Positions 33,488 through 40,715 of a DNA stretch of 64,000 nucleotides are shown here, piece by piece. Made by a program: the position numbers and the translations under genes. This stretch comes from an uncultured candidate division WWE3 bacterium (GTDB lineage Bacteria > Patescibacteriota > WWE3 > UBA101185 > UBA10185): assembly GCA_963765125.1 (NCBI GenBank), contig CAVXUZ010000005.1, positions 97,596-161,595 of the forward strand, given 5' to 3'. The notes under the pieces are model-generated. The model worked only from the letters and a program-made list of their open reading frames with translations. It made no database searches and was not told where the DNA came from. Position 1 is the first letter of the stretch. Every line of letters begins with the position of its first letter.

Positions 33488-33564
33488 TAGGATATTTTAA
33501 CAGAAAGTTCTAAATTCTCTCTTGGGTATATAAAAATAATGTTGTTGTGACAGTGTAAATTCTT

Positions 33565-33917
33565 TGGTGGGCGAGGAGGGAGTCGGTCACATGTTTTTCA
33601 TCTCTAGCTCATTACACTCGCAAGATCTGAAAGCATTCGATCCCGCCTCCTTCACTTCGTTCAGTCCGGTATTCGCCTCCTACTTTTACCAACAAAAAAG
33701 TGTCCATCAAACCTTTAGGTCTGCTGTACACTTTTCTGGTGGGCGAAGAGGGAGTCGGTCACCTGTTCTCGCCTGCTGGCTCGCCAGTCGACCCCGGCTC
33801 GGCACCGTCGTGCCTGCGCCTTTCGCCTCCCTTACTAGTCATAAGAAAAAAATATCCGGCATTGTAGCCGGCTATCTTTTTCTGGTGGGCCATCTGTCAG
33901 GATGTGCGAACTGCTTT
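33565..33917. repeat. Tandem att-scar-like array: two 26-nt tRNA-Leu(UAA) 3'-end duplicates, each followed by a core element, then hairpin plus 30-nt repeat copy 2
   Basis: tggtgggcgaGgagggagtcggtcac at 33565-33590 and tggtgggcgaagagggagtcggtcac at 33737-33762. Each is followed by a core related to 36599-36715. CCGGC-attgta-GCCGG hairpin plus T-run at 33856-33885, then the 30-mer at 33888-33917. Confidence 0.65.
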
Positions 33918-33955: not shown

Positions 33956-34798
33956 ATGTTGTATCATAGTGTCATGGAATTAAAAACAGCTAAGTTACAA
34001 AAACATTTCTACATGTACTGCGCGATGTTTTACGCAGATAATCGTACTATCGGTCATAAAGATTGGGTCTCAGAACTTAAAGATAAAGTTATTACTGCAC
34101 TTGAGAAATCAAACACACCAAAACTAGATATGCCCATGCATAGCTACCATTACCTTATGGGAATATTTAATCCAGAAGGTTACGAGGACCATGGGAGATT
34201 AATGATTCCTCCTAAAGAAGTTTTAGATTATGTTGAGCGAGTATCCGCACTCCCGGAATTACAAGAAATATGGAAACAATACGAGCCTGATTTTGATACT
34301 AGACTTAAGGATTTTGAGGAGCGTTTTATTGATATAGAAAACCTTTTTAAAAACCATTTTGATTATGAGCCTGATATTAAAACCTTTTATTTAACAAGAA
34401 ATTGGGATACATCGGGAAAATGTATTATAACTAAAGATGGTTACTACATTTTAGTTGGGTGGAAAAAAGAGGGCATAAATTTAAACCAAATACTACATGA
34501 ATTAACTCACAGTTATTTAGATAAATGTACATTAACCATTCCGAGGGACGTAAACGATTACCTTAAAAAAATGCCAGAGGAAGTTTTAGGATCTTATGCG
34601 AATCCCCATGCTTATATAGAAGAATCCATAATCCGGGCACTTGTATTGTATTTAAGTCATTCGGAAGAAAATATACAAAACTATTCTTTAGTAGGAACCG
34701 ACTTGGATATGATATTACCTGCAAAGTACTTAGATGTTTTGGAAAAAGATAAGCCCGAAAAGTTAACTATAGAATATCTCAATAAACTAGCCTATTAA
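33956..34798 (+). CDS. Hypothetical HExxH protein (putative zinc metallopeptidase)
   Basis: 280 aa with QILHELTHSY; adjacent to the Cys-rich peptide/rSAM pair. Confidence 0.45.
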   Translation: MLYHSVMELKTAKLQKHFYMYCAMFYADNRTIGHKDWVSELKDKVITALEKSNTPKLDMPMHSYHYLMGIFNPEGYEDHGRLMIPPKEVLDYVERVSALPELQEIWKQYEPDFDTRLKDFEERFIDIENLFKNHFDYEPDIKTFYLTRNWDTSGKCIITKDGYYILVGWKKEGINLNQILHELTHSYLDKCTLTIPRDVNDYLKKMPEEVLGSYANPHAYIEESIIRALVLYLSHSEENIQNYSLVGTDLDMILPAKYLDVLEKDKPEKLTIEYLNKLAY

Positions 34799-34888
34799 TA
34801 AACATTATTTTTGCTAAGAAAAGGTAAAGGGACTACTTCCAAGTGTATAAGAAGTAATCCCTTTTTTGGTGACGCTTGCCGGTAGTCT

Positions 34889-35050
34889 TTAGTCTTTTGG
34901 ACAGGACTGATCGTGCGGGCACGGGTCGTTGGTATTGCCACTGCAGGAATGCCCAGAACAATCTGACGAACACTTGCCGTCGGAAGGGCAATCAGCAAAG
35001 GCAGCTAACTGAGGTTGCCAGCGAACAACTTGCGTGAAATCGGTACCCAT
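34889..35050 (-). CDS. 53-aa six-cysteine RiPP-precursor-like peptide (SCIFF-like), not in the ORF track
   Basis: AAGGAG RBS 8 nt upstream of the ATG at 35050, 19 nt after the rSAM stop. Product MGTDFTQVVRWQPQLAAFADCPSDGKCSSDCSGHSCSGNTNDPCPHDQSCPKD. About 50% GC in a ~33% GC genome. Confidence 0.6.
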   Translation of the reverse strand: MGTDFTQVVRWQPQLAAFADCPSDGKCSSDCSGHSCSGNTNDPCPHDQSCPKD

Positions 35051-35069
35051 TGTCGTTTTCTCCTTTCTT

Positions 35070-36401
35070 TTAGAATTCGGACAACATGTCTTGTAGAAGC
35101 AGTAGCTTCACAATTATACAAGACTCTTGAAAAGTGTTCTCGCCTAAGTATCTAGAAATCGGACAGAAACCTTGGCAATTCCACCTTGCAAAACAATTTG
35201 AACACAGGTTTTTAGGTAATCCTCCATGTACCACAATGCGTGCGTGAGCATCGGGATTCATTACAGGTACCTGTGTGGTAGACCCAAAACTTCCATAGAA
35301 GAACAGTTCAGAGCCTGGATGCTGCTTCTTTGTGATACGCGAGCATCCGGAGACTGAACCATCGGGGCATACGCAAAACATTGTGCCTGTACTTGCTCCA
35401 CAGAATTGTAATTTATCTCTGCGGAATGTATCCAAAGTGCAAACAACGCGTAAACCTAGTTCCACTCCTATCCTACGAGCTTCTGTGTAGTATTTTACAA
35501 AAAGCCCCGGATCAACATCTAAATCAGTGGCGCCACTTGCTTTACCACAAAGTGATAGCGGCTCAAAGTGCACGAGTCCGTTCACTCCGTTTAACGCTTC
35601 TTTAGCAAGGAACCTTACAAAATTCGGCATTTCCTCCACACTCTTACTTGTTACTGTGGCACGAATAGAAAATGCTAGGCCAGCAGCCTTCAGATTTGCA
35701 ACCCCTTTCATGGCTGCTTTGAAAGAACCTTTGCCACCTACCATAGGGCGTTGCAGGTCTTGCACTGTTGCGACACCATCCAATGAGATTGTGATGTTAT
35801 CAACATTGTGTGACTTCAGCCATTCTGCAAACTTTGTAGTAATCAGTGTGGCGTTAGTCACTATGCTCACATGCAGTGTTATATCAAGCTTCTCGGCCAC
35901 TTGTAAGGCGTATAGGACGCATACCTTGAGCAGATTCTTTCGCTTCAGAGATTCCCCACCACCATGAAATGTTAGGGTGAAGTGTTTTCTGCCGCGGGAC
36001 TGTGCTAAACGCAATGCATAACTTATTGCGTTCTTTGCTACATCTTCAGGGATAGTTGTAGAATCACAACCCGCCTTTGCGTAGCAGTAGATACACCGAA
36101 GATTGCAGTCGTTGGTTAAAGATAAAGTAATTCCTTGCTCCCCAGGTAACGATTGAGTCGGTAAAGACCAATGTTCCGGAAGTGCGAGTAACCCGTTATC
36201 TGAAAGAAACTTAACCATAACTGGGTTGAATCCGTCTGCAGTACTGCCTTCTGAAACTGCAGAAATTAGCGTCTGAAGTTGTTCTGCTCCGCCTTGTGAT
36301 AACTTGGTTACCAAGCCATGCAATGGGGCATACAACAAGAAAGACGGTTCGTTCGGATACAGAATAAGAAAAAGCCAATCTTTAGGCTTTAGTGTGTCCA
36401 T
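35070..36401 (-). CDS. Radical SAM / SPASM-domain peptide-modifying enzyme
   Basis: CNLRCIYCYA (CxxxCxxC) and a C-terminal Cys cluster (CGASTGTMFCVCPDGSVSGC...CSNCFARWNCQGFCP) typical of SPASM. Start moved to MDTLKPKD (GAGAGGAG RBS). GC-richer than the surrounding sequence. Confidence 0.8.
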   Translation of the reverse strand: MDTLKPKDWLFLILYPNEPSFLLYAPLHGLVTKLSQGGAEQLQTLISAVSEGSTADGFNPVMVKFLSDNGLLALPEHWSLPTQSLPGEQGITLSLTNDCNLRCIYCYAKAGCDSTTIPEDVAKNAISYALRLAQSRGRKHFTLTFHGGGESLKRKNLLKVCVLYALQVAEKLDITLHVSIVTNATLITTKFAEWLKSHNVDNITISLDGVATVQDLQRPMVGGKGSFKAAMKGVANLKAAGLAFSIRATVTSKSVEEMPNFVRFLAKEALNGVNGLVHFEPLSLCGKASGATDLDVDPGLFVKYYTEARRIGVELGLRVVCTLDTFRRDKLQFCGASTGTMFCVCPDGSVSGCSRITKKQHPGSELFFYGSFGSTTQVPVMNPDAHARIVVHGGLPKNLCSNCFARWNCQGFCPISRYLGENTFQESCIIVKLLLLQDMLSEF

Positions 36402-36549: not shown

Positions 36550-36598
36550 AGTTCGACTCCCTCTTGGGTATTTGGTGGGCGAAGAGGGAGTCGGTCAC
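36550..36598. repeat. Inverted-repeat hairpin built from the tRNA-Leu 3' end: 20-nt repeat (36550-36569) plus 26-nt 3'-end duplicate (36573-36598)
   Basis: GTTCGACTCCCTCTT-gggtatttggtgggcg-AAGAGGGAGTCG, a perfect 12-bp inverted repeat. Confidence 0.65.
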
Positions 36599-36715
36599 AT
36601 GTCTTTCAACTCTAAATTCGCTCAAGCTCATTAAGATTTGAAAGCATTCGACCCCGCCTCCTTCACTCACTTCGTTCGCTCAGTCCGGCATTCTCGTCTC
36701 TCCTCAAAATGAAAA
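36599..36715 (-). repeat. Conserved ~115-nt non-coding core element (tRNA-3'-end-associated mini-element, copy B)
   Basis: gtcacatgtctttcaactctaaattcgc(tc)aagctcattaagatttgaaagcattcgacccc... is about 90% identical to 41362-41470 next to tRNA-Trp, with diverged copies at 33591-33700 and 33763-33850. Confidence 0.7.
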
Positions 36716-36749: not shown

Positions 36750-36835
36750 TGGTGGGCGAAGAGGGAGTCGAACCCTCACGTCCTAATGGACAAGAGATTT
36801 TAAGTCTCTCGTGTCTGCCATTCCACCACTCGCCC
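36750..36835 (-). tRNA. tRNA-Leu (anticodon TAA), long variable arm, CCA encoded
   Basis: Manual fold: anticodon loop CUUAAAA, T-loop UUCGACU, 3' CUCUUCGCCCACCA. Confidence 0.85.
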
Positions 36836-37368: not shown

Positions 37369-37534
37369 TTAAAAATAAGCCAAATTCAAGCATTTTGTAT
37401 TTTACACGATTGAGGGCAAAGAATAAACCTAGATTATGTAGTTTTTGTAAAATTGTTTCTCAGTAGGTAGGGGTGTATAATCCTGAAAAATAGTGCTTAA
37501 AAAGGTTAATATCATAGTGTTGAGGAGGCATATT

Positions 37535-38578
37535 ATGGAAGGGTTAGGTATTTACGGAGGTTGGTTGACGGTAAACCGCTTTTGTAATTTTAGATGCGGC
37601 TGGTGTTACGCTAAGGGGACAAAATTTAAATCAGAAGATAGTATGTCTGTTGAGCTTGCTAAGAATCTGATTAATTTGATGCACACAATTGGAGTTCATA
37701 ACGTAATACTTATCGGCGGAGAAACTTTGTTTTGGCCCCACTTGTTTTCTATCGCGACGTACATTAAGTCTCTAGGTATGACGAGTGCGGTTGTTACAAA
37801 TGGCTGGTTGTTGGGATTTGAAAAGTTTCGAAAAAAAGTAGAGACCTCAGATATTACTTCTCTCAGTATTTCACTAAAAGCAGGTAACAGGCACCAATAT
37901 GAGAAGCTAACTGGCTTTGATGGATTCGAAAAGGTAGTTGATGGTCTTCGCGAAGTTTCCAAGTGGAAAAACATAAGGGTGGAAACCACAACCGTTGTGA
38001 ACACAGAAGTACTAAGGAATATTGATGAGATAGCAAAGTTGGCGTTTGATAACGGGGCAGAATCTTTCAACATCTCAATGTGTGGTCCAGTGATTAGCGA
38101 TGGTGTATTTGACAACCGATTTGTTCCAGAACCAAAAGATGTTGTGAATACATTTTTGAGTAAATACGAATTACTTCATTCGCTAAGTAAAGGAAAATTT
38201 TCTATCGAGGCAGCACTTCCTACCTGTCTTTGGCCAAAGGAGTTTTTACATAAGCTGGAAGAAAACGATCAGATATCTTATGGGTGTCACTTTAAAACGA
38301 GAAGTGGGGTCATCTTTGACAGATTAGGTAGAATTATACCGTGCAATCAGCTTTTCGATTACCCTATGGGGCAATATGGCGAAGACTTTACAGATCTAGC
38401 TAGCTTTTCCGAAGTTTGGAATAGCCCCCAGCTAAATGCATTTTATGATAAAATGCTTGAGTACCCAGCAATAGCCTGCGTTAAATGCGGCGAATTTGAT
38501 AAGTGTGGCGGTGGTTGCCCACTAAACTGGTTTGTTAGGGATCCAGAGACAGTAATAGAAAAAGGAGAGCGCGTATGA
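37535..38578 (+). CDS. Radical SAM / SPASM-domain enzyme (second copy), translationally coupled to a Cys-rich peptide
   Basis: CNFRCGWCYAKG CxxxCxxC and C-terminal CVKCGEFDKCGGGCP SPASM-like cluster. Start moved to the ATG at 37535 (GAGGAGG RBS). The stop TGA overlaps the peptide ATG (ATGA). Confidence 0.8.
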   Translation: MEGLGIYGGWLTVNRFCNFRCGWCYAKGTKFKSEDSMSVELAKNLINLMHTIGVHNVILIGGETLFWPHLFSIATYIKSLGMTSAVVTNGWLLGFEKFRKKVETSDITSLSISLKAGNRHQYEKLTGFDGFEKVVDGLREVSKWKNIRVETTTVVNTEVLRNIDEIAKLAFDNGAESFNISMCGPVISDGVFDNRFVPEPKDVVNTFLSKYELLHSLSKGKFSIEAALPTCLWPKEFLHKLEENDQISYGCHFKTRSGVIFDRLGRIIPCNQLFDYPMGQYGEDFTDLASFSEVWNSPQLNAFYDKMLEYPAIACVKCGEFDKCGGGCPLNWFVRDPETVIEKGERV

Positions 38579-38745
38579 ACGCAAATCTAATGGATTTGGC
38601 TGCACAAAGAAAGAGCACCGGTGTAGTTCTAGACAAGCGTCCTTCAGGTAATCAAACTAAGACGATTATTATGGGGCATTGTCAGTGCAGATGCGCAAAT
38701 TGCAAATGTAATTGCTTTTGTGCGCAATGCAAAGCTAGTTTGTAA
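38575..38745 (+). CDS. 56-aa Cys-rich RiPP-precursor-like peptide (8 Cys in the last 20 residues), not in the ORF track
   Basis: AAGGAG 7 nt upstream. Product MNANLMDLAAQRKSTGVVLDKRPSGNQTKTIIMGHCQCRCANCKCNCFCAQCKASL; ATGA overlap with the rSAM stop. Confidence 0.65.
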   Translation: MNANLMDLAAQRKSTGVVLDKRPSGNQTKTIIMGHCQCRCANCKCNCFCAQCKASL

Positions 38746-38757
38746 CTGCTCAAATTT

Positions 38758-38798
38758 GGGGGATATTTAAGGTACCTAACTACTTTTAGATATCCCCC
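38758..38798 (+). promoter_or_regulatory. Perfect 9-bp stem hairpin (GGGGGATAT...ATATCCCCC) between the peptide and the HExxH gene
   Basis: 23-nt loop containing the palindrome AGGTACCT; no U-run, so possibly an attenuator or processing site rather than a terminator. Confidence 0.4.
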
Positions 38799-38833
38799 TT
38801 ATCCATGAGGCATTTAATTTAGATACTTGATGG

Positions 38834-39226
38834 ATGATCACATATAAATATATTGAAAACTACTTCAAAGATGACTCAGATTCGGAAGAGTTTTGTAAAA
38901 AACACAACATTGTGTACTTCAAGCCCACCCGAGAAAGAAAAGCTTGGTTAAAAAAGTGGCTTAAGGACGTAAAATTACCAAAAATTGAGTGCAAACGCGA
39001 CATAACGTGCTATTGGCGAGATTTTGGAACATGGGGAATGTACCACCCAGAAGATAATTCTATATCAATATGTCCTTATGAGATTGAGCGAGCTGGAGGA
39101 CTAGAGCAAGTTATACTTCATGAAATTGTGCATTTAGAGCACCCCGAACTTGATAAGTTACCACACAACCAAAAAGAAGATAAAATAAATGGACTAGGTA
39201 ATAAACCTAAAAAAGATAAAGCGTAG
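38834..39226 (+). CDS. YgjP/DUF45-like zinc metallopeptidase (HExxH)
   Basis: DFGTWGMY...ICPYEI...VILHEIVHLEH matches the WGSC / HELxH architecture of the YgjP (WLM-like) family. Confidence 0.5.
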   Translation: MITYKYIENYFKDDSDSEEFCKKHNIVYFKPTRERKAWLKKWLKDVKLPKIECKRDITCYWRDFGTWGMYHPEDNSISICPYEIERAGGLEQVILHEIVHLEHPELDKLPHNQKEDKINGLGNKPKKDKA

Positions 39227-39256
39227 ACTTTTTTGTAATCTACGCTTTTATTTCAG

Positions 39257-39643
39257 TTACCGCTGGTTGTTGTTCGCCTTGTTGATGTACAGATCGAGAG
39301 GATCTGCGGGTCCAAATTTGTCGATCATAAGCATGTTTAAAACCACATAGTTGACGTACAAACCCACGGCCAGTACTCCAGCGTAGCCAATTATGAGCCA
39401 TATTCCTTTTAAACTAAAAATATCGAGTAACAGGGTGAGTATTAGAAATACTAGTATGGTAAAAACAACGTAAAGACCCACACCGGTTTTCACTATAATG
39501 AAAGCCTTTTCGAACCAACTTAACGGTTTGTTTTCCATTTCAGCCTCCTCCGAGTTTAGTTGTCCTATAGTATACAAGATGGTTTGGTGATAGGCAACAT
39601 CTTCATAGGCAATAAAAAAGTGCAAATTTTGATGGATTTGCAC
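39257..39643 (-). CDS. Hypothetical small membrane protein
   Basis: 128 aa with 3 TM segments. Confidence 0.4.
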   Translation of the reverse strand: MQIHQNLHFFIAYEDVAYHQTILYTIGQLNSEEAEMENKPLSWFEKAFIIVKTGVGLYVVFTILVFLILTLLLDIFSLKGIWLIIGYAGVLAVGLYVNYVVLNMLMIDKFGPADPLDLYINKANNNQR

Positions 39644-39662: not shown

Positions 39663-39911
39663 CTAAACTTTGTGACCATACTTCAATAAACCAATGTTTA
39701 TTGCCTCATGCACCAGGGCAATGAAATTTACCAAAGCGACTAGGCCAAAAATTACCAAAAGCACCCTAATATTCATCCCGTTGTCAATCCGATGGATAAT
39801 GTAGGCAAATGTAGCTATCCCGCATATGAGAACGTTTACTACAAGGTTCGCTTTAAAGACCTTCACAAATGCTTTTTTCGAACAATAAAAAATAGCATTA
39901 AGTTTTTTCAT
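39663..39911 (-). CDS. Hypothetical small membrane protein
   Basis: 82 aa with 2 TM segments. Confidence 0.4.
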   Translation of the reverse strand: MKKLNAIFYCSKKAFVKVFKANLVVNVLICGIATFAYIIHRIDNGMNIRVLLVIFGLVALVNFIALVHEAINIGLLKYGHKV

Positions 39912-39980: not shown

Positions 39981-40715
39981 CTATTTATGATCACCAAACC
40001 TATGTACTATCTTATTTTGTAATTTCTTATAATTACGTTTGGATAAAATTAAATATAATTCGCTTTTTAACATTTTTTTATAAAAATTTAGTCTTCCTTC
40101 TTCATCTAACCTTCTTACTGAAAAATGAATTCCTGGAGAACGAAGAATCTTAGTGTTATATCCTGCTTGATGTAGCTTGCTGCTCAAATCAAAATCCTCA
40201 GCAAGCGATAGGCTTGTATCAAATTCACCAACTTTTTTAAACGCATCTTTCTTTACAAATATGAACGTACCCACAGACCCGTGTGTCCATTTTCTAAAAA
40301 TATCTAAGTAAAGAATATTAAAAGCACTGCTCGTTAAGTGATCGTCGAGTCTGTGGCTCATTGGTATATTCCAAGCAGTTACCGAGTCGGCCCTGCCCGA
40401 CGAAACGAGTCCGTCTAATGTTTTAAGAAAGTTTTTAGAAGGCTTAACGTCGGCATCGAAGAAAATTAAATTATTTGTTTTAGCTTTAGACGCAGCATAA
40501 TTTCTTTGAAATGACTGCCCCTTTTGTGGAGAAATAAAAGTTGTTATTTTAAGTGAAGATTTAAATTCATCAGCTTTCTCTATCGTTTTATCTTTAGATT
40601 TTGCATCAGCCACGATTACTTCAAAATCCTTGTGCGTTTGCTCTTTTAGAGCGTTTAACAGGATGGGGAGATATTCCTCTTCATTAAGTGTTGGTATGCA
40701 GATGCTAAATTTCAT
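39981..40715 (-). CDS. Family-2 glycosyltransferase
   Basis: SICIPTLNEEEYL...VIVADAKSKDKT GT-A N-terminus; 244 aa. Confidence 0.7.
   Translation of the reverse strand: MKFSICIPTLNEEEYLPILLNALKEQTHKDFEVIVADAKSKDKTIEKADEFKSSLKITTFISPQKGQSFQRNYAASKAKTNNLIFFDADVKPSKNFLKTLDGLVSSGRADSVTAWNIPMSHRLDDHLTSSAFNILYLDIFRKWTHGSVGTFIFVKKDAFKKVGEFDTSLSLAEDFDLSSKLHQAGYNTKILRSPGIHFSVRRLDEEGRLNFYKKMLKSELYLILSKRNYKKLQNKIVHRFGDHK

Follow-up and report, generated by a model that had tools for sequence, protein, structure and literature searches.

A radical SAM/SPASM enzyme coupled to a cysteine-rich peptide in a candidate division WWE3 bacterium: a probable undescribed family of enzyme-modified peptides

A conserved pair of enzyme and peptide genes

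A 64,000-nt stretch of DNA from an uncultured candidate division WWE3 bacterium (assembly GCA_963765125.1, contig CAVXUZ010000005.1 of ~480 kb, positions 97,596-161,595; hereafter the window) contains, at 37535-39248 in its own numbering, a three-gene unit that encodes a radical S-adenosylmethionine (rSAM) enzyme with a SPASM domain, a 56-aa peptide with eight Cys, and a small protein with an HExxH motif. Judged by the conservation of their sequences and of their pairing, the rSAM enzyme and the Cys-rich peptide very probably represent an undescribed family of enzyme-modified peptides. The kind of system, in which a Cys-rich precursor is paired with an rSAM/SPASM enzyme, is known, but the family itself is new: neither NCBIfam (June 2026 release) nor Pfam contains it, and full-text literature searches on rSAM/SPASM enzymes and Cys-rich peptides in Patescibacteria or Saccharibacteria, on ranthipeptides of the candidate phyla radiation (CPR), on CXC precursors, and on HExxH proteins together with rSAM enzymes yielded no description of it. 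The traits that distinguish the family are the lack of a recognition element (RRE) of the kind used by enzymes that act on peptides made by the ribosome and modified after translation (RiPPs), a SPASM domain without its terminal Cys, cores of contiguous CxC repeats, private minimal zincins, and a distribution that is centered on the CPR with patchy spread. Established features are the class of the enzyme, the coupling of the genes, the conservation of enzyme with peptide, the leader/core architecture of the peptide, the hairpin that follows its gene, and the frequent HExxH partner.

The ATG of the peptide gene (38575-38577) shares bases with the TGA stop codon of the rSAM gene (38576-38578) in an ATGA overlap, and the peptide gene has an AAGGAG ribosome-binding site (RBS) of its own; these features, the 56-aa peptide with eight Cys, the hairpin at 38758-38798, and the open reading frame (ORF) with HEIVH are all found in the ORF map and the sequence where a preliminary description of the window had placed them. 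The rSAM start codon ATG 37535 is favored over GTG 37493 because GAGGAGG precedes the former by 7 nt and because homologs are also of ~347 aa. The peptide (38575-38745, + strand; MNANLMDLAAQRKSTGVVLDKRPSGNQTKTIIMGH / CQCRCANCKCNCFCAQCKASL) has all eight Cys within its final 21 residues, in the pattern CxCxCxxCxCxCxCxxC, and this spacing is identical throughout the closest clade (the window and related loci L001-L003). Comparison of the window with L002 reveals 36 differences at third codon positions versus 17 and 13 at first and second positions, with 17 codons differing synonymously; by this pattern of third-position and synonymous changes, the peptide ORF is coding and under purifying selection. 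The earlier statement that the peptide is unannotated needs qualification, as a gene for the identical product (P0093) has already been called, both in public ncbi/ena records and on a Logan contig.

With each of 185,579 species represented by one genome, a scan located 59 loci that encode a relative of the rSAM enzyme, and 56 rSAM copies were assessed. A short Cys-rich ORF adjoins 35 of these copies by a strict filter and ~40 of the 56 by a relaxed one, against a background of 2.6% (Cys-rich tails in 129 of the 4882 small ORFs of the same loci), which bears out the expected co-occurrence; the short ORF typically starts between -16 and +36 nt from the rSAM stop codon, the interval counted being about -40 to +70 nt. 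The N-termini of the short ORFs align to a common amphipathic leader, roughly xxLxxLxxxRx(S/A)T(G/N)(V/I)xPxxxPxG. A hidden Markov model (HMM) of the leader alone, for which 17 family peptides were picked by hand, scores rSAM-adjacent ORFs in ~20 loci at E < 1e-3, mostly the loci that supplied the seed, so that this is a consistency check and not independent evidence. The cores that follow the leader are hypervariable in length, in number of Cys (3-21), and in spacing (CxC, CDC, CxxC), and their other residues vary freely. A conserved leader with a variable Cys core is the hallmark of a RiPP precursor, and a metal- or cluster-binding protein would be expected to show the opposite. The pairing of an rSAM/SPASM enzyme with a precursor-like Cys-rich peptide, as proposed in the preliminary description, is thus upheld by the conserved leader, the variable Cys core, and adjacency across phyla, and the 56-aa peptide is likely to be the substrate of the enzyme.

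The rSAM/SPASM enzyme

The enzyme belongs to the radical SAM superfamily (Pfam Radical_SAM PF04055, 66.1 bits against a gathering threshold of 29.5), with its CX3CX2C motif at C17/C21/C24, and has a SPASM domain at residues 217-347 (TIGR04085, 32.2 bits, cut-off 27). The auxiliary-cluster Cys are C231, C251, C270, C315, C318, C324, and C328, which comprise the canonical SPASM elements C251-x13-G265-x4-C270 and C315-x2-C318-x5-C324-x3-C328 and the upstream C231. All ten Cys of the enzyme are invariant in a 42-sequence alignment, and so is G265 of the CX13GX4C element. Because the terminal Cys of the SPASM motif is missing, auxiliary cluster II may be atypical, with an open or non-Cys ligand site. 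The terminal Cys is kept in 11 of 52 family members, mostly distant members from Saccharibacteria that end in ...DPxxCHA.

No N-terminal RRE domain precedes the CX3CX2C motif, which begins at residue 17, and the AF2 (AlphaFold2) model of the enzyme (predicted local distance difference test score, pLDDT, 92) leaves no room for one because it starts directly at core strand beta-1 (residues 8-12). There is no adjacent RRE either: clustering of the neighbors in related loci returns only the peptide and HExxH genes as conserved. The enzyme does not, then, have the makeup of an RRE-dependent maturase.

Every curated NCBIfam cut-off, whether of a peptide-modifying or of a cofactor-making family, lies far above the scores of the enzyme, of which the best are ~60-75 bits against cut-offs of 230-650. 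The models of cofactor-making rSAM enzymes score 74.5 bits for archaeal MoaA (cut-off 325), 74.6 for AhbD (500), 72 for NirJ2 (500), and 61 for the W maturase (380). Since no equivalog cut-off is approached, the enzyme is placed neither in a cofactor clade nor in a known peptide-maturase family. Two findings had been named at the outset as grounds for abandoning a peptide-modifying role, namely a clean fit of the enzyme to a non-peptide family and a small ORF that is not conserved beside homologs; no such family accommodates the enzyme, and homologs do have the small ORF beside them. Membership in the SCIFF, CcpM, PapB, or anSME (anaerobic sulfatase maturase) families, also raised in the preliminary description, was not found in the NCBIfam HMM search: the models of the SCIFF maturase (TIGR03974, cut-off 425) and CcpM (TIGR04068, cut-off 500) are outside the best 25 NCBIfam matches of the enzyme, as is anSME (TIGR03942) for the full-length protein; the SPASM part reaches 13.7 bits with the anSME model, whose cut-off is 349. 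No sulfatase ORF is present among the neighboring genes scanned (35-43 kb of the window) or among the conserved neighbors in related loci.

Searches by fold and by profile associate the enzyme with both small-molecule and peptide-modifying enzymes. In the fold search, BlsE, a small-molecule rSAM enzyme, is first by E-value, and SuiB and anSME have the top TM-scores (template modeling scores), 0.65-0.72. When the family profile is matched to PDB sequences, the leading hits are peptide-modifying SPASM/twitch enzymes (SuiB at 2e-20, SkfB, CteB, PqqE). Among 5.8 billion clustered proteins there are 92 relatives of the enzyme, nearly all unnamed or generically named, and several are from WWE3, Patescibacteria, or Pacebacteria.

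The HExxH protein

All-against-all clustering of neighbor ORFs with BLAST identifies three HExxH clusters, whose members in most loci come shortly after the peptide gene, one of ~131 aa in 11 loci (the window included), one of ~213 aa in 12, and one of ~238 aa in 16, and profile-profile comparison links the three with probabilities of 96.7% and 97.7%. A partner of one of these forms is encoded at 33 of the 56 rSAM copies. Across 23 homologs of the window protein, H96, E97, and H100 never vary and H103, P104, and E105 hardly do, giving the signature HExxHxxHPE. At the level of fold the protein is a zincin, with HExxH on the active-site helix and a third metal ligand, and it is best described as a minimal zincin of a rare, uncurated kind: none of the models in Pfam or NCBIfam gives a significant match, and the hints are confined to sub-threshold matches to M76, SprT-like, and DUF6782. 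Its earlier assignment to the DUF45/YgjP type was rejected, because PF01863 matches neither the window protein at E <= 0.01 nor six of its relatives at E <= 1; in Pfam the protein has a sub-threshold M76 match, and in NCBIfam it has none. The NCBIfam search likewise gives no match to the model of alpha-ketoglutarate-dependent HExxH oxygenases (TIGR04267 / IPR026337). When 1.84 billion representatives were searched exhaustively with a profile, only 38 relatives of the 130-aa form came up at E <= 1e-3; the family is small and private.

Proposed pathway and the alternatives to it

That the three-gene operon (37535-39248) makes a RiPP is moderately favored, by the following mechanism. The rSAM enzyme and the 56-aa precursor would be translated as a coupled pair by way of the ATGA overlap and the RBS of the peptide gene, and the RRE-less enzyme would bind the leader motif L..L..R.STGV.P...P.G directly. 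SAM-derived 5'-deoxyadenosyl radicals, with the auxiliary Fe-S clusters of the SPASM domain, would then modify the CxC-repeat core. The likeliest modification is the formation of several intramolecular S-C thioethers from Cys sulfur to carbons of neighboring residues, which would yield a compact polycyclic peptide, because Cys is the sole constant of the cores and because all rSAM/SPASM enzymes characterized on Cys-rich precursors, among them sactisynthases, ranthisynthases, and StsB on a CxCxC core (PMC10288494), make S-C bridges. The hairpin after the precursor gene would attenuate read-through into the zincin gene or stabilize the transcript before it, and the zincin would then probably cut off the leader near the junction of ...IIMGH with CQC.... 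As no exporter is encoded, the product may act in the cell or exit by a general route. Both the thioether chemistry, which is proposed by analogy, and the function of the HExxH protein as a peptidase are put forward tentatively, each being somewhat less than probable on its own.

Several observations weigh against this pathway. A word-indexed search of 5.8 billion sequences matched the window peptide alone, NCBIfam has no match for it or for eight other family peptides, and Pfam (window peptide only) has none. The NCBIfam scan at E <= 10 gave nothing for the window peptide and six of the eight others and two chance-level, unrelated matches for the rest, so that the peptide is recognized by no curated SCIFF or other Cys-rich precursor model of NCBIfam or Pfam, and the anticipated link to known Cys-rich precursor families failed to appear. 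On the side of the enzyme, peptide-maturase models are far below their cut-offs (PapB, NF047865, 57.1 bits against 340; StsB, NF045574, 56 against 625), the N-terminal half resembles MoaA, AhbD, and NirJ equally well by bit score, and the final Cys of the canonical seven-Cys SPASM motif is missing in 41 of the 52 family members, the window enzyme included. The enzyme thus appears to belong to no thioether-forming family and to have an atypical SPASM domain, and the chemistry in the pathway is drawn from analogy. No transporter or immunity gene accompanies the three genes. The HExxH gene has no clear Shine-Dalgarno sequence before its start codon, and its homologs (44-68% identical) stand without an rSAM gene within 1.2-2.5 kb on each side in four of five loci (L069-L072), the fifth homolog (L067) being 2.2 kb from a different rSAM gene, so that it may not be dedicated to the rSAM-peptide pathway.

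These solitary homologs bear most directly on the third gene. Because they occur without an rSAM gene, the core module is taken to be the rSAM-peptide pair, with the zincin as a frequent but not obligate associate. The complete set of precursor, maturase, and protease that was first proposed is therefore uncertain, with an HExxH gene at the majority of rSAM copies and HExxH genes elsewhere that lack the enzyme. In L070, the HIT gene that neighbors the module in the window is retained, and HNH and deoxyribosyltransferase genes occupy the upstream place of tRNA-Arg, rSAM, and peptide; by this gene order, the rSAM-peptide pair looks like a variable insertion beside a more stable HExxH gene. It is accordingly a serious possibility that leader removal is not the task of the HExxH protein, which would then be either an independent housekeeping zincin that lies downstream by chance or a non-hydrolytic tailoring enzyme akin to the alpha-ketoglutarate-dependent HExxH oxygenases of other RiPP clusters. 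HExxH enzymes encoded beside rSAM enzymes have been shown to be oxygenases (PMC12636437), and in the window the hairpin sets the HExxH gene apart from the pair. An unrelated housekeeping protein would not be expected to recur as three diverged but homologous clusters after the peptide gene at 33 of 56 rSAM copies in several phyla, nor would it account for the HExxH partner of a second cassette in the window, which is found at six of seven loci related to that cassette. As for an oxygenase, the protein lacks a match to TIGR04267, and at 130 aa it is far smaller than a domain of the ChlH type (342 aa). An O2-dependent enzyme is, moreover, unlikely in fermentative CPR bacteria.

A second alternative accepts the enzyme and its substrate and replaces the thioethers of the proposed pathway with other chemistry on Cys or on the residues between them, such as oxidation of Cys to formylglycine or thioaldehyde in the manner of anSME, C-C or C-N cross-links, epimerization, or removal of the Cys beta-carbon. 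The enzyme lies outside all thioether-forming families, the missing final SPASM Cys separates it from canonical sactisynthases and ranthisynthases, and anSME, which is also RRE-less and of ~350-370 aa, is among its best structural matches (TM 0.65-0.68); rSAM enzymes of RiPP pathways that are close in sequence can catalyze very different reactions (PMC10288494). Such chemistry is nevertheless unlikely, since the abundance of Cys is the one feature common to all cores and fits Cys as the reactive donor, and its anSME-like form is disfavored by the poor match to anSME models (13.7 bits on the C-terminal part against 349) and by the lack of a sulfatase gene among the scanned neighbors in the window and the conserved neighbors of related loci.

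It is quite unlikely that the module, instead of making a secreted bioactive peptide, makes a thiol-rich intracellular molecule that acts as a cofactor or handles metals, in the fashion of PQQ and mycofactocin. The layout of rSAM, peptide, and peptidase genes parallels those two pathways, whose enzymes PqqE and MftC are among the sequence matches; the 59 loci have no conserved exporter, immunity gene, or regulator beside the module, the family is kept in very small CPR genomes, and CxC repeats resemble the metal ligands of metallothioneins. The invariant cores of PqqA and MftA, however, are unlike the cores of this family, which vary in length, spacing, and number of Cys, and both the presence of several copies per genome (three loci in one Myxococcales metagenome-assembled genome, MAG) and the patchy distribution across phyla are more typical of diversifying bioactive peptides.

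Least probable is that the Cys-rich protein is a partner of the rSAM enzyme, as a miniature Fe-S or metal electron carrier or a cluster donor, and that the enzyme acts on a different substrate: coupled translation is no less typical of an enzyme and its partner, Fe-S clusters or metals can be bound by Cys-rich tails, the best bit scores of the enzyme are to small-molecule rSAM enzymes (MoaA, AhbD, NirJ), and the related rSAM enzyme of L067 has a Cys-rich tail fused at its own C-terminus, but redox partners hold their Cys spacing fixed, whereas here the Cys region varies and the Cys-free N-terminus is conserved, and no motif or family match of ferredoxin or rubredoxin type is found in Pfam or NCBIfam.

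Comparison with characterized systems

The ranthipeptide and SCIFF systems (PapB with freyrasin; ScfB, CteB, Tte1186) resemble the module in the window in that a short precursor, Cys-rich in its C-terminal core, is encoded next to its rSAM/SPASM maturase, and SCIFF systems are likewise not known to have a dedicated exporter. Among the matches listed, PapB is one of three NCBIfam models that align along the whole of the window enzyme, and CteB is among the top PDB sequence matches of its family. The module differs in that its core consists of contiguous CxC repeats instead of Cx3D or Cx2-type spacing, its enzyme lacks the RRE and the final SPASM Cys and scores far under the family cut-offs, its peptide matches no model of a SCIFF or other precursor, and a small zincin gene follows. 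The core of StsA, CxCxCx4GxGxG, is closer in its alternating Cys, which the rSAM/SPASM enzyme StsB makes into several thioether rings (PMC10288494), and Cys/Gly/Asp-rich tails are found in some distant members of the family described here (e.g., L023, L033), but the window core has no Gly acceptors. The StsB model aligns to the rSAM core of the window enzyme alone, the core of the model beginning ~100 positions in, and StsB comes from an RRE-associated data set, whereas the window enzyme has no such N-terminal region. Because the StsB/StsA study mined RRE-associated rSAM enzymes only (PMC10288494), the family described here would have been excluded from its set.

In size, in lack of an RRE, and in the combination of rSAM and SPASM domains, anSME is similar to the window enzyme (TM 0.65-0.68), and it modifies a Cys within a polypeptide. 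The differences are that near the window rSAM gene there is neither a sulfatase gene nor a C/S-x-P-x-R target motif, that the partner there is a short, dedicated peptide whose leader is conserved, and that anSME models score far under their cut-off. PQQ and mycofactocin biosynthesis, like the module, employ an rSAM/SPASM enzyme, a small precursor, and a peptidase without an exporter, and PqqE and MftC are among the sequence matches; these pathways require a separate or fused RRE protein (PqqD, MftB), which the module lacks, and have invariant cores and further tailoring enzymes, whereas the cores here are hypervariable and Cys-based. The weak Pfam hints for the HExxH protein (M76, SprT-like, DUF6782) point to minimal zincins such as SprT/Spartan, Wss1/WLM, M76/Atp23, and the minigluzincins, and the alpha-ketoglutarate-dependent HExxH oxygenases ChlH and PflC provide precedent for HExxH proteins that recur beside rSAM enzymes of RiPP pathways; unlike members of these groups, the window protein has no significant family model, a tiny family, and the HExxHxxHPE signature of its own.

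Distribution and significance

By record title, the 59 loci are from Saccharibacteria (17), other Patescibacteria/CPR (13), Clostridia (10), a single Myxococcales MAG (3), genomes labeled Gammaproteobacteria (3), Nitrospirota (2), Rhodospirillales (2), and Opitutia (1), with 8 unclassified. About half are thus Saccharibacteria or other Patescibacteria, representing at least 30 CPR species-level genomes, and the spread beyond the CPR is patchy across phyla; the suggestion that such a module would be unusual in a CPR genome is contradicted by these numbers. A tblastn search of plasmids with the rSAM enzyme gave no match at E <= 1e-20. Two rSAM genes stand side by side in L005, L011, and L039, and the three separate loci of the Myxococcales MAG (L009-L011) each have their own longer precursor, of 94-111 aa. 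The different rSAM enzyme of L067 (6642-7682, 346 aa), with its fused Cys-rich C-terminal tail, may be a fusion of enzyme and substrate.

Patescibacteria are usually described as almost devoid of natural-product biosynthesis. One survey found zero biosynthetic clusters in its Patescibacteria MAGs (PMC11613949). The presence in the window of two different cassettes of an rSAM enzyme with a Cys-rich peptide bears on the biosynthetic capacity of the CPR, and an RRE-less maturase that matches no curated model falls outside the sets obtained by RRE-based mining. It is doubtful, but would be of consequence, that the family represents an unrecognized RiPP class centered in Patescibacteria, in which RRE-less enzymes with incomplete cluster II ligands bind the leader directly and, accompanied by private zincins, make a new structure from CxC repeats. 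In such a class, the CxC repeats could become a ladder of vicinal thioethers or a scaffold that binds thiols or metals, and the product, having no exporter, might have its site of action within these ultra-small episymbionts or where they meet the host. If the class were real, a blind spot of RRE- and HMM-based mining could explain why few or no clusters are reported in the CPR. The three-gene system, at ~1.7 kb, is small enough for synthesis and direct testing, and could reveal how a leader is recognized independently of an RRE, what a SPASM domain does without its last Cys, and which chemistry is supported by runs of CxC.

Organization of the locus

The three-gene module lies directly 3' of tRNA-Arg (Table 1). 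The -35 hexamer of the promoter-like site at 37453..37481 falls below the 4-of-6 criterion of the consensus scan. The stem of the hairpin that follows the peptide gene (38758-38798) is perfect (GGGGGATAT/ATATCCCCC) and is extended by RNAfold to ~17 pairs, and a 96-nt segment that contains it has a minimum free energy of -31.9 kcal/mol (z = -4.74 versus shuffles). Of 43 related loci, 29 have a comparable hairpin after the peptide gene (z < -2; median z -2.9), in many cases with a T-run behind it. A second, small hairpin predicted by RNAfold (38801-38835) pairs across the region 5' of the HExxH start codon and its first bases, and could limit translation of the HExxH gene. Beyond the terminator-like hairpin, the two genes for small membrane proteins and the GT2 (glycosyltransferase family 2) gene are present as the preliminary description reported, but they were rejected as members of the cluster, being convergent on the minus strand, past the bidirectional terminator, and absent from the clusters of conserved neighbors. 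Neighbor clusters of the 59 loci contain no conserved transporter, immunity gene, regulator, or RRE gene beside the module.

Table 1. Coordinates of the features of the module, its surroundings, and related loci (window numbering unless a locus is named)
Feature	Coordinates	Strand	Remarks
Promoter-like site	37453..37481	+	TTGTTT, 17-nt spacer, TATAAT with TG directly 5'; predicted by reading the sequence
Radical SAM/SPASM enzyme gene	37535..38578	+	347 aa
rSAM residues after C328	38519-38575	+	region without terminal SPASM Cys
Shine-Dalgarno AAGGAG of peptide gene	38562..38567	+	within 3' end of rSAM gene, 7 nt before ATG 38575
Precursor peptide leader region	38575..38679	+	residues 1-35; conserved motif L..L..R.STGV....P.G
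Precursor peptide core and stop codon	38680..38745	+	CQCRCANCKCNCFCAQCKASL, 8 Cys
G+C-rich stem-loop	38758..38798	+	directly 3' of peptide stop; putative leaky terminator or mRNA stabilizer
HExxH protein gene	38834..39226	+	130 aa; HEIVH at 39119-39133; putative leader peptidase
Bidirectional intrinsic-terminator-like hairpin	39218..39248	.	12-pair stem, T-runs on both strands (terminator scan); closes three-gene unit
Small membrane-protein ORF	39257-39643	-	
Small membrane-protein ORF	39663-39911	-	
GT2 gene	39981-40715	-	
tRNA-Leu(taa) gene	36750-36835		
Second-cassette rSAM/SPASM gene	35073-36401	-	443 aa, ~90-aa N-terminal extension; best model PapB, 124 bits against 340
Second-cassette peptide gene	34889-35050	-	MGTDFTQVVRWQPQLAAFADCPSDGKCSSDCSGHSCSGNTNDPCPHDQSCPKD; 53 aa, 7 Cys; 20 nt downstream of its rSAM gene
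Second-cassette HELTH protein gene	33956-34798	+	280 aa; convergent
Solo HExxH homolog, L069	2391-2777		
Solo HExxH homolog, L070	2501-2881		
Solo HExxH homolog, L071	2501-2821		
Solo HExxH homolog, L072	2501-2896		

A second cassette in the window

A second triad of rSAM, Cys-rich peptide, and HExxH genes, of a different family, is located 1 kb upstream of the first module (33956-36401). In seven metagenomic relatives of this cassette (L060-L066), the rSAM gene is always followed by a Cys-rich ORF, and six of the seven also have a convergent HExxH ORF. The second triad, independent and itself conserved, offers support by analogy for a module of rSAM enzyme, Cys-rich peptide, and HExxH protein. 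Its HELTH protein is not claimed as a member of the HExxH family of the first module, the profiles of the three HExxH clusters giving it insignificant scores of 2-7 bits.

The second cassette has a G+C content of ~45% versus ~35% nearby, and is bracketed by direct repeats of ~95-130 nt (33563-33656 and 36571-36667, 93-94% identical), the 3' ends of which are in common with the nearby tRNA-Leu(taa) gene. The 3'-terminal ~23 nt of this tRNA gene, CGACTCCCTCTTCGCCCACCA, are present in three extra copies (33563-33656, 33735-33778, and 36571-36667), at which ARAGORN and Rfam call nothing. The arrangement of repeats suggests that the cassette was acquired as a small island at a site of tRNA type; alternatively, the repeats may be genes of tRNA-like RNAs. 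Adjacent to the cassette, the G+C-rich segment 33500-33950 (minus strand), which has no convincing ORF and matches no Rfam family in gathering or E-value mode even at E <= 1, folds far better than shuffled controls (z = -4.87).

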